Made by a program: the position numbers and the translations under genes
Virus record (IMG/VR): IMGVR_UViG_3300048930_000242
Location: 89,341-153,340 of that record
Reading direction: 5' to 3' (one strand)
From: a virus
Length of the DNA stretch: 64,000 nucleotides
In this document: piece by piece, positions 30,660-40,497 of the stretch
Position numbering within the stretch: the stretch's first letter is position 1
How the letters are laid out: every line of letters begins with the position of its first letter
The notes under the pieces: model-generated
What the model was told of the DNA's origin: nothing
What the model saw: the letters and a program-made list of their open reading frames with translations, nothing else
Databases searched by the model: none

Positions 30660-31040
30660 AATTCTTGCACCGTATCGGCGGTGCCACCCGGATAGACTTG
30701 GTCAGCCAACGTCTATCAGATCAGCCTCAAGCAGCCATAGCTACCGGAGCAAAGTACTCGTCATTTGCGGTTACTTTAGGTTTGGACTCTTTAGGACGGA
30801 CTTGCCGACTTAAGCAAGCTACCCGATCCACGCGAGCTACCATCTCGGATCGCCAACAGGTTAGTATGACATCAGTCGAAGCCAGGGCAGGCCCATCAAA
30901 AGCTCTTTAGGTGGCTCCGGGTCTTGATACGGAGCACTTACATCCCCTTTCGTACCTAAAGGGCTTATGGTGGACCTGGCGGGAATCGAACCCGCGTGTT
31001 GCTGCCTTTTCGCTGTCAGTTTACGATCATTCAAGCCCTA
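30660..31040 (-). ncRNA. ssrA: circularly permuted (two-piece) tmRNA
   Basis: acceptor piece ...GCGGGTTCGATTCCCGC-CAGGTCC-A-CCA (ends 30968) precedes coding piece GGGCCTGCCCTGGCTTCGAC (starts 30894); G3:U70; tag ORF 30768-30727 ANDEYFAPVAMAA*. Confidence 0.92.
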
Positions 31041-35283: not shown

Positions 35284-35363
35284 TGGCGCGCCTGGCAGGA
35301 TTCGAACCCGCGTGTATCCAGCTAACCTTTCAAGGAGTTAGAAGCTCCAGGGTATACAGGCGC
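35284..35363 (-). tRNA. atypical tRNA-Arg(TCT)-like RNA lacking a normal D arm
   Basis: GCGCCTG/CAGGCGC-G-CCA, T arm, GGAG-CTTCTAA-CTCC. Confidence 0.6.
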
Positions 35364-35621: not shown

Positions 35622-35715
35622 TGGTACTCCTATCAGGACTCGAACCTGAACTGACCGCTAATCTGGCGGAAATCGGGTTTATAAGGCCCGCCGTGCTACC
35701 TTACACTATAGGAGC
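35622..35715 (-). tRNA. tRNA-Ile(TAT) with long variable arm
   Basis: CTTATAA loop; V-arm CCGC-CAGATTA-GCGG; CCA. Confidence 0.8.
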
Positions 35716-36555: not shown

Positions 36556-36646
36556 TGGTGGGACGAGTGGGATTTGAACCCACGATGAGGATTTCTCCTG
36601 TCGGATTAAAAGTCCGATGTCTTCGACCAGACTTGACGACCGTCCC
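36556..36646 (-). tRNA. tRNA-Lys(TTT) with long variable arm
   Basis: CTTTTAA loop; V-arm AGGA-GAAA-TCCT; CCA. Confidence 0.85.
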
Positions 36647-37341: not shown

Positions 37342-37432
37342 TGGTGCGCGCAGATGGACTCGAACCACCACAGACTTATTTGGATGCGGCTGCTTTACAG
37401 GCAGCGGAGCTCAACCAGTGCTCAGTACGCGC
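37342..37432 (-). tRNA. tRNA-Tyr(GTA)
   Basis: class II cloverleaf, CCA. Confidence 0.88.
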
Positions 37433-37517: not shown

Positions 37518-37589
37518 AGAAAACTTTACAAGTAGATGGTTCATTCTACCACCAAACCATCTGCTTGTACAGCTTTGAAGTGTAACAAG

Positions 37590-38490
37590 GTAGCCTGAGA
37601 ATACGGCTTCCGGTGGTTGCCTTTCGGAGCATTATCACCATGTTGCGACACGGCGTTCTCTCCTTATCCACCTCCAGCAAGGAGGTATCAACCGTAGCGG
37701 CCTTTTTAGACTGGTGGCGTTTCCAGTGTCGTCATGTTCTATTCCAGGCCTTGTCTACCGCCTACCTTGCGACGAGCAGTACGGGCTGCTACACCCTACG
37801 TGCGACTCTTCCTGAACAACCTTTGACTTTGCGATTCTTAGGTTGACTTGATTCACCCGAAGGTGTCAAGTATTACGCTACTTTCAAACATGACCGGCAA
37901 CGACTTTGCGTTTTAGTTGATGTGGGATTTGAACCGCACGCCAATTCCTTTAGATGGAATTGCTCTACCAATGAGCTAATCGTAACCTCCTGAAGACGAG
38001 CGTTGCCGTGACTTCATGGACTTTTGGTCCACAAAATACCACCCGCCTAGTATCCTTTCGACCGCTAAGTCTAGTCAGATCAGTTGTACCTTCTCGGCTC
38101 TTGCGAAGCCGAAACCTTACAACCTGGTGAACCGCTCTTGGCCGCTAAACCTCGAACTTTGATCACCTTCATGTTCAGCTTTGCTACTCGGTCTGTTTCG
38201 CTATGATATGCGAGTGCGAATCGCCAGGAGTCTTTCTACCAGTTGGCCTTGGACTCTTTTCTCATCAAACCTTCGCGGCTATCTCCGTCACCGAAGAGGC
38301 GCTTGTGGCGCCAGCGTTGCATGATTGTTTAGATGGACCTTTCGGCGGTGGTCGGGGAGGCCTTCCACCTTTCTGCACCTTGCGGTACAACATCCTTTCA
38401 TCTTTTCACTTTCGATCAAGATGTGCTAAACCAGACGGATTTCTCCGTTTCGTCCTTTTTGAAGGGAGGACTCTTCAGTAGTTCCCTTTG
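37590..38490 (-). ncRNA. large structured ncRNA, GOLLD-like
   Basis: ~900 nt without a credible ORF inside a phage tRNA array; many GNRA/UUCG hairpins; embedded tRNA-like domain; 3' end ...CCGAAAGG...GTATTCTCAGGC. Confidence 0.7.
37914..37987 (-). tRNA. degenerate tRNA-like domain, anticodon CTA, embedded in the large ncRNA
   Basis: TAGCTCATTGGTAGAGC D arm, AATTCC-ATCTAAA-GGAATT, GGTTCAAATCC; bulged acceptor, no CCA. Confidence 0.65.
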
Positions 38491-38495
38491 AAGCT

Positions 38496-38570
38496 TGGCG
38501 CGCCGCGTAGGACTCGAACCCACATCTTTCGGCTTTGGAGGCCGACATCTTGCCATTAGACGAACGACGC
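38496..38570 (-). tRNA. tRNA-Trp(CCA)
   Basis: cloverleaf, CCA. Confidence 0.88.
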
Positions 38571-39572: not shown

Positions 39573-40211
39573 TTATTTTCTTCCGCTTCTCCATCCTTCT
39601 GGAATCTCTTGATCTTTCTTAATCTTCTTATTCAGGATTCCATCTGTAATCCATTTAGTTCCGAATTGTGAATTTTTAGAACCTTCTCGTGCACCTTTTA
39701 ATGTTTGACTAATTTTTCTTTTAGTTTCATCGGAATGTGTTTTTCCATTCCAATCAAATCGTTCATCACCTAAAAAGTATTTTCCATAAATCTTAAACCG
39801 AGTTTTCGCTGTGTTTGCGGCTCTAAGACTTCGACGAATTGGATCAATTTCGTCGTTTTTACTAATCTTTTCATTTCCAATAAGAGAAAGATTTTTTCTC
39901 TTATGTGAATCATACGATTGATTCGCAAAATCCCAACCACCTTCTCCGCCAATCTTTAAATTGTAACATTTGCCGGAATCGAGAACTTCTTCAGTCACCA
40001 ATTCTTTCTCTTTTGAGAAAGCCTCTTCTTTCGTTTCAAAGGAGTAAAGAACTTCTTTCACAAAATTCTCTACTCCGTACTTCTTGATTGCGTACTTAAG
40101 CCTCTTACCTGAACCCAGATAGTCATCATTGGGGTCAGTGGTCTTATGTACGCCTATATAGAACATTCCGTTAATCTTATTGGTTGTCCTATAGACTGTA
40201 TAGACTAACAT
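39573..40211 (-). mobile_element. GIY-YIG homing endonuclease with NUMOD3
   Basis: VYRTTN...YIGVH...YLGSG...YNLKIGGEGG, HSDETKRKIS. Confidence 0.9.
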
Positions 40212-40328: not shown

Positions 40329-40423
40329 GTAACTTTTCTCATTCTTGAAACTTCTCGGCATTACTAGGCACAACTCCGTAGAGAATTACGCACCGTTTCA
40401 AACCAAGAAGCCTCAAGGATGAG

Positions 40424-40497
40424 GGACCGGGGTTGGATTTGAACCAACGTCCTTCGGCACATAAGCCGCTGCTCTTCCAGACTGAGCTACCCGATCC
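40424..40497 (-). pseudogene. tRNA-like gene with 6-nt anticodon loop, no CCA
   Basis: TAGCTCAG..GG.AGAGC D arm, GGTTCAAATCC, loop TTATGT. Confidence 0.6.

Follow-up and report, generated by a model that had tools for sequence, protein, structure and literature searches.

A phage GOLLD RNA that is probably freed by its own hammerhead ribozyme and carries a tethered tRNA look-alike with an incidental CUA triplet

We analysed a large non-coding RNA encoded in a 64,000-nucleotide (nt) stretch of viral DNA, henceforth the window, which comprises positions 89341-153340 of the 153,340-bp virus record IMGVR_UViG_3300048930_000242 (the ends of the record are direct terminal repeats). The RNA is a GOLLD, a family that is among the largest bacterial and phage RNAs and whose cage structure was solved in 2025, and its variable linker contains a module shaped like a transfer RNA (tRNA) with the triplet CUA in its anticodon loop. 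We consider it likely that this GOLLD is freed by a hammerhead ribozyme of its own, and that the module is a tethered, non-decoding tRNA look-alike whose CUA is incidental. Specifically, the hammerhead would cut between 38434 and 38433 and free the GOLLD 5′ end; the RNA would end at 37592, just before a conserved hairpin, yielding a molecule of about 842 nt; the module would stay covalently attached within the linker; and selection would keep its elbow, anticodon stem and T stem. Given its interrupted acceptor helix and the absence of a 3′ CCA, host processing and charging enzymes should not make a working tRNA of the module, and we infer that it is not excised.

Membership in the GOLLD family was assessed with cmscan: the Rfam model RF02032 (GOLLD) matched 38049-37592 on the minus strand along its whole length (model positions 1-416 of 416) with 200.3 bits, against a gathering score of 150, and an E-value of 4.9e-55. 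The initial annotation had given the GOLLD label and had proposed a search with the Rfam covariance model; the whole-model match above the gathering score bears the label out, and the RNA is a genuine GOLLD, present in one copy only in the 153,340-bp genome. Its nearest relative (henceforth L472) lies within an 84.6-kb phage contig binned with an uncultured Rhodoferax genome. The L472 GOLLD scores 201.1 bits, the order GOLLD, tRNA-Pro, tRNA-Tyr is common to both phages, and the topoisomerase II large subunit of the L472 contig is 89% identical to that of the window.

The RF02032 model spans the conserved 3′ domain only, and the 5′ domain reaches up to the neighbouring tRNA-Trp gene (all features described here are on the minus strand unless stated otherwise). 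In the cmscan alignment, the 3′ domain opens with a hairpin with a CAAAAG loop (37990-38049; model positions 1-60), followed by the linker with the tRNA-shaped module (37914-37987) and by a pseudoknot-bearing core (37592-37913) that begins AAACGCAAAGUC, ends GUAUUCUCAGGCU and is 80% identical to that of L472. The 5′ domain (38050-38433; 384 nt), which begins at the predicted hammerhead cut, is lineage-specific: BLAST against about 120 GOLLD loci found no similarity beyond its own lineage, and its identity to the L472 counterpart is 80%. It folds better than shuffled sequences (z = −2.68) and has many GAAA loops, in line with the GNRA-rich hairpins pointed out in the initial annotation. The absence of a credible open reading frame (ORF), claimed there as well, also stands: the longest frames are of 92 amino acids (aa; plus strand) and of 123 aa running through tRNA genes, and the indels that separate the 5′ domains of the window and L472 are non-triplet and frame-breaking.

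In its overall layout the RNA thus resembles the RF02032 family, with a 5′ domain that is variable and about 400 nt long, a location in a phage tRNA island, a conserved 3′ domain above the cut-off and a variable linker between the first 3′-domain hairpin and the AAAGCAAAAGUC motif. It differs from other GOLLD lineages in that its 5′ domain has no detectable similarity to theirs and has a hammerhead fused at its 5′ end. Cryo-electron microscopy structures have been reported for two GOLLDs, a 14-mer of env-38 and a 12-mer of Streptococcus agalactiae; the GOLLD linker points into the interior of the cage and sometimes carries tRNAs (PMC12286853, PMC12990946). By homology with these structures, the window's GOLLD would assemble into a many-copy RNA cage with its variable linker facing inward.

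The hammerhead (38428-38484) is absent from the initial annotation. A permissive cmscan search matched the Rfam model Hammerhead_1 (RF00163) in full length to 38484-38428 with 24.1 bits, and the sequence has all the features of a type I hammerhead ribozyme (core CUGANGA ... GAAA ... UH and three stems, with stem I open): stem I GAACUA/UGGUUU, core CUGAAGA, stem II GUCCU/AGGAC, GAAA, stem III CGGA-GAAA-UCCG and a GUC cleavage triplet, with a predicted cut after C38434. A strict descriptor of the motif matched once in the 153-kb genome, three times in 150 shuffled genomes (about 0.02 each) and had no match in 5.3 Mb of other loci. Comparison by descriptor with the orthologous hammerhead of L472, the one relative available, revealed covariation. 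The core is intact (the free position N7 alone has changed), a U-G pair in stem I has become C-G, and stem II reads GCCUA/UAGGC in L472 vs. GUCCU/AGGAC in the window, i.e., 3 of 5 pairs have changed on both sides. The hammerhead fold is the lowest-energy fold of the L472 sequence (z = −3.0), and the first 60 nt past the cut are near-identical in the two phages. Because the ribozyme of L472 directly adjoins the GOLLD body rather than a tRNA, we take the hammerhead to belong to GOLLD. Its conservation with covariation appears to be new for GOLLD, as a literature search linking hammerheads to GOLLD found no such paper, and self-cleavage would be expected at the predicted site.

Alternatively, the motif could be a chance or inactive look-alike, with the GOLLD 5′ end arising from ordinary tRNA 3′ processing after tRNA-Trp. 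Indeed, its score is below the Rfam gathering score of 34, the lowest-energy fold of the window's sequence is an alternative one that sequesters part of the hammerhead core, no hammerhead was found among about 120 other GOLLD loci, and many GOLLDs merely follow tRNA-Met. We nevertheless find this explanation improbable considering how rarely the descriptor matches shuffled genomes, and considering that L472 keeps every core base, a compensated stem II, the hammerhead as its lowest-energy fold and a position next to the GOLLD body instead of a tRNA. A score below the Rfam cut-offs is, moreover, shared by the other phage matches to the core signature (28-30 bits). This signature occurs in at least 119 IMG/VR loci and seldom adjoins tRNAs. 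Some phage contigs have several matches to the core pattern (5 in L290 and 3 in L253), and in two cases a match lies directly beside tRNA genes (L250:9755-9792 and L293:8399-8442). Hammerheads that process phage transcripts are known, and type I hammerheads have been described in phages and prophages (Perreault et al. 2011, PMC3088659). The motif of the window resembles phage type I hammerheads (RF00163) in its canonical core, three stems, open stem I and a placement that suits the processing of a long transcript, while it differs from them in being fused to the first GOLLD base, in its long stem II/III loops and in scoring below the family cut-off.

The tRNA-shaped module (37914-37987) is located at a distance of 328-401 nt from the 3′ end of GOLLD, which is the position of ARAGORN-predicted tRNAs in other GOLLDs. 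The Rfam tRNA model matched 37981-37919 with 44.9 bits, covering model positions 5-66 only and leaving the acceptor stem unaligned, while ARAGORN did not call the module at its default or a 90% threshold and returned a malformed, 66-nt “CUA” tRNA at 80%. The module has a D arm GCUC/GAGC with a canonical loop, an anticodon arm AUUCC-AUCUAAA-GGAAU (loop at 37953-37947, with U33, CUA and A37), a T arm GUG(C)GG-UUCAAAU-CCCAC with one bulged C, and an acceptor helix GGUU(AC)GAU/AUCAACU with a two-base AC bulge. On its 3′ side an A is followed directly by AAACGCAAAGUC (AAACGC; the start of the conserved GOLLD core), with no CCA, whereas 19 of the 22 free tRNAs of the window, parsed in the same way, encode CCA. 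The module therefore lacks features expected of a working tRNA, namely a regular 7-pair acceptor, a regular 5-pair T stem and a 3′ CCA. The internal tRNA-shaped domain had been described in the initial annotation with the loop AT-CTA-AA, a bulged acceptor stem and no CCA, and all of these details hold. When the body of the module was compared with 943 tRNAs, the three closest were all embedded in GOLLDs (with UUU, CUU and one 8-nt loop), and its mean identity was 0.72 to embedded tRNAs vs. 0.55 to 923 free tRNAs (p = 4.6e-6). By this measure, the window's module descends from embedded tRNAs.

The irregularities of the module are shared by embedded tRNAs as a class. We compared 21 embedded tRNAs with 129 free ones that share their T-loop motif and come from the same loci, applying one parse to both. 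A full 7-pair acceptor was present in 2/21 embedded and 113/129 free tRNAs (Fisher p = 1.2e-12), CCA was encoded in 2/21 and 109/129, respectively, and the G+C content of the acceptor was 0.29 vs. 0.66. The T stem was intact in 18/21 embedded and 117/129 free tRNAs. In an alignment of the 21 embedded tRNAs, 87.5% of the cells were paired, as opposed to 61% after shuffling and 34-46% in slid controls, and 118 cells had double-sided changes compared with 43 in shuffles. Pairing reached 96% in the D stem, 91% in the anticodon stem and 95% in the T stem but just 73% in the acceptor, where pair 2:71 was open in 14 of 20 embedded tRNAs. As a class, linker tRNAs thus preserve their D, anticodon and T stems through compensatory change. 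We infer that these tRNAs are domains retained for their tRNA shape, with an acceptor that would have been disabled so that host processing does not cut GOLLD in two.

Another possibility is neutral decay, with the module being a defunct tRNA gene that landed in a permissive linker and has no function itself. In favour of this view, no other part of GOLLD is as poorly conserved as the linker, and a tRNA is absent from it in about 90% of GOLLDs; aberrant loops occur in several embedded tRNAs (8 nt in length, or with A34 or C37), and the module in the window has blemishes in its stems. This explanation has little probability in our view, given the strong covariation among the 21 embedded tRNAs, their being nearer to each other than to free tRNAs, and the comparison with L472. 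The L472 module is 83% identical to that of the window, a value not below that of the GOLLD core, and its anticodon-stem sequences are identical. In the acceptor, the AC interruption is shared and G1-U72 is replaced by A1-U72, while pairing of the T stem is preserved via two double changes. Because the AC-interrupted acceptor is common to both phages and the T stem continues to pair through double changes, the odd shape of the module appears to be maintained by selection and not to be decaying.

Tethered tRNA inserts are already a known feature of GOLLD. In Mycolicibacterium, a tRNA-Phe is located in the J13/15 linker (Morgado 2020, as cited in PMC12990946), and a pseudo-tRNA within the GOLLD of M. 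aubagnense gave no separate signal on a Northern blot (PMC6582537). As in these cases, the insert of the window occupies the corresponding position in the linker and shows no indication of yielding a gene product of its own; it differs from them in its triplet CUA, the conserved AC interruption of its acceptor and its bulged T stem. The frayed, A+U-rich acceptor, the lack of CCA and the fast-changing loop (see below), as measurements on the class, were not found in the papers on GOLLD linker tRNAs that were consulted.

To tabulate the embedded triplet across homologues, GOLLD loci were gathered from IMG/VR with a 3′-end motif (eleven were confirmed by cmscan with 176-227 bits), and further loci were obtained from IMG/VR, metagenomes and genomes with a motif joining the T loop to the GOLLD core. 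The scan of the metagenomes had a minimum gap of 12 and the spacing in the window is 11, placing relatives with exactly that spacing outside its reach. In an unbiased sample, about 8% of GOLLDs contained a linker tRNA. Across some 30 lineages, the triplets UCU, UGU, CUU, UUU, UGA and AUU recurred in several, while CUA (window only), UAU, AUC, CUG, UAG, GCA, GUG, UGG, AGG and GAU each occurred once, and at least 4 lineages had 8-nt anticodon loops. One CUA among 30 is about what is expected by chance. The initial annotation had itself noted that random anticodons among homologues would make the CUA incidental, and random triplets are what the tabulation returned. In L472 the loop is CCUCUAA, i.e., the pentamer UCUAA has moved by one place, which leaves C33 and puts UCU in register.

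The anticodon loop evolves at a much higher pace than the RNA surrounding it, an observation that is new here. Near-identical pairs of phages were compared over 6-7.5 kb: L217 and L209 share 98.97% identity across 5.9 kb of flanking sequence and have the loops CUCUUAA and AUUGAAG, while L211 and L239 are 98.6% identical and have UGG and UGA. We conclude that the CUA is an incidental, passing state of a fast-changing loop and not the anticodon of an amber suppressor. The fast change may reflect drift at one free spot, single-step replacement or an arms race. No partner loop co-varying with the anticodon loop was found inside GOLLD, and the clustered changes between L217 and L209 that we examined as such a partner turned out to be a compensated hairpin.

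The translation of the genome is unremarkable with respect to TAG. With the standard code, a crude gene call gave a coding density of 0.92 of the genome, with TAG ending 33 of 220 crude genes, and extensions obtained by reading through TAG were not enriched over those after TAA or TGA. Recoding of TAG was rejected, as ORF lengths under TAG-sense, TGA-sense and TAA-sense translation, stop usage and extensions were all ordinary and large ORFs were not lengthened when TAG was read as sense. A 90-aa ORF that ends with TAG in frame with an RNA ligase gene (junction GAG TAG AAA ATG) has no counterpart in the related phage and was set aside as chance.

Several observations nonetheless weigh against the overall interpretation, in addition to the sub-threshold score and alternative fold of the hammerhead. 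There is one close relative, so conservation at the level of the lineage is that of two sequences, and the census of embedded tRNAs was built on T-loop motifs and misses modules with other T loops. With 7 nt, U33 and A37, the loop of the module has the canonical form of an anticodon loop, and the pentamer UCUAA is common to the window and L472, meaning that the loop sequence may be constrained. Finally, CUA is one substitution away from the CUU of related embedded tRNAs, and a single substitution from such an anticodon to CUA is a classic route to a suppressor. It has to be asked, then, whether the module could serve as a weak amber suppressor, stored or excisable, that is released by RNase P/RNase Z, completed by the CCA-adding enzyme and able to read UAG; besides the loop, the free tRNA(CUA) genes in the tRNA islands of other GOLLD phages (which imply that suppression is used in this phage world) and the “inhibited storage” that a review proposes for GOLLD-embedded tRNA (PMC12990946) speak for it, but we judge it very unlikely in light of the 2-nt acceptor bulge, the 1-nt T-stem bulge and the rejection by ARAGORN, the missing CCA, the C33 and UCU of the nearest relative, the lack of any signal of TAG recoding or read-through, the in-frame TAG at the RNA ligase gene that is not conserved, and the mycobacterial Northern blot without a separate pseudo-tRNA (PMC6582537). 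Of the two roles that the initial annotation had suggested for the CUA domain, a structural or decoy module fits the evidence, whereas an excisable weak amber suppressor is at odds with the irregular stems, the lack of CCA and the normal use of TAG.

The module shares with free phage amber-suppressor tRNA(CUA) genes the same loop sequence, CUA followed by AA. These genes, however, have a regular, G+C-rich 7-pair acceptor and an encoded CCA, whereas the module has neither and is kin to embedded tRNAs, not to these genes. Free, well-formed tRNA(CUA) genes, most of them with CCA, were found in other GOLLD phages (L022:661-736, L027:10315-10390, L071:11827-11902, L097:1785-1857, L130:11382-11456 and L141:1945-2020), while there are none in the window or in the relative. 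The relative's contig has a tRNA with a UUA (ochre-type) anticodon (L500:1341-1412) between tRNA-Gly(GCC) and tRNA-Leu(CAA); in the window, ARAGORN predicted no tRNA at the corresponding position.

One conceivable role, which we put forward tentatively and regard as fairly improbable, is that the look-alikes held within GOLLD cages act as baits for host factors that read anticodon loops, e.g., tRNA-cutting defence nucleases, with their loops under diversifying selection. A bait of this kind would account for the change of 4 of 7 loop bases between 99% identical phages, for lysine-type loops being more frequent than any other and for the disabled acceptor end. If true, the CUA would be one state of an arms race and GOLLD would gain a testable function.

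Downstream of the GOLLD 3′ end, and before tRNA-Pro, lies a conserved element (37520-37568) made up of a hairpin (37568-37528) and AAAGUUUU. The hairpin has a fold z-score of −4.8 in the window and −8.4 in L472, and the sequences of its arms differ between the two phages yet pair in both. We read it as terminator-like, or else as a processing or protective element. The initial annotation had placed a promoter here; the corresponding site (37571-37543) matches 9 of 12 consensus positions, 1 site was found vs. 0.9 expected from shuffles, and its hexamers fall inside the conserved hairpin, which makes the hairpin the more likely identity of this sequence.

The phage itself is a distant T4-like phage. 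It carries a T4-like complement of genes (two topoisomerase II subunits, two RNA ligases, DNA ligase, primase, ribonucleotide reductase and nicotinamide phosphoribosyltransferase), and its proteins show only 35-37% identity to those of cultured phages. Between 26.9 and 40.5 kb, ARAGORN predicted a tRNA island of 35 tRNA genes and a permuted transfer-messenger RNA (tmRNA), all on the minus strand; GOLLD appears to be transcribed on the minus strand together with about 36 phage tRNAs. Its upstream neighbour, in the same direction, is tRNA-Trp(CCA) at 38496-38570 (ARAGORN; Rfam tRNA 54.6 bits), which encodes CCA. The permuted tmRNA lies at 30727-31028 (minus strand), has the tag ANDEYFAPVAMAA and also matched the beta_tmRNA model below threshold. 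The host is probably a betaproteobacterium, because the L472 contig was binned with Rhodoferax and the tmRNA has this sub-threshold match to a beta-type model. In Xanthomonas phage XacN1 (L002), the GOLLD 3′ domain is 71% identical to that of the window, and a permuted tmRNA is located about 1 kb upstream of GOLLD (L002:65-364).

Attempts to find further relatives by other routes were unproductive: a search of IMG/VR with the RNA ligase found no relatives, and two lineage-specific DNA patterns had no matches there. A neighbouring 212-aa ORF was tried as a marker of synteny and discarded, as it is a GIY-YIG homing endonuclease and its 80 matching loci are therefore not kin; this GIY-YIG/NUMOD3 gene (39573-40211, minus strand) is within the tRNA island, 1.1 kb upstream of GOLLD.

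The island also contains several unusual tRNAs, all on the minus strand. The tRNA-Tyr(GUA) at 37346-37432 has a long variable arm and an encoded CCA, is missed by default ARAGORN but called at relaxed thresholds, matches the tRNA-Sec model below threshold (34.5 bits) and has an orthologue in L472. At the start of the island, an irregular tRNA (40423-40496), reported by ARAGORN as “tRNA-???”, folds into a good cloverleaf (51 bits with the Rfam tRNA model) but has an anticodon loop of just 6 nt (UUAUGU) and no CCA. At 35287-35363 there is a weak tRNA match (29.2 bits) whose T arm, CCA and perfect, G+C-rich acceptor stem contrast with an aberrant D and anticodon region; the 440-nt gap in which it sits also contains a small ORF of about 36 codons. 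Finally, tRNA-Ile(UAU) at 35622-35715 (94 nt) and tRNA-Lys(UUU) at 36556-36646 (91 nt) are unusually long, with extra sequence in the variable region.

Taken for what it says about GOLLD biology, the window's GOLLD adds nothing to the case for amber suppression. Its contribution beyond the GOLLD inserts already known consists of a conserved hammerhead at the 5′ end together with measurements on embedded tRNAs as a class. The 5′-OH end that the hammerhead would make might also play a part in assembly or be relevant to the two RNA ligases of the phage. Three handles can be tested at the bench, namely a ribozyme-defined 5′ end that is conserved in two related phages, linker tRNAs that are selected for their tRNA shape but have lost what processing and charging require, and a fast-evolving anticodon loop. 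Together, these point to a module that might bind a tRNA-recognising factor, a guess at this stage, rather than one that decodes.

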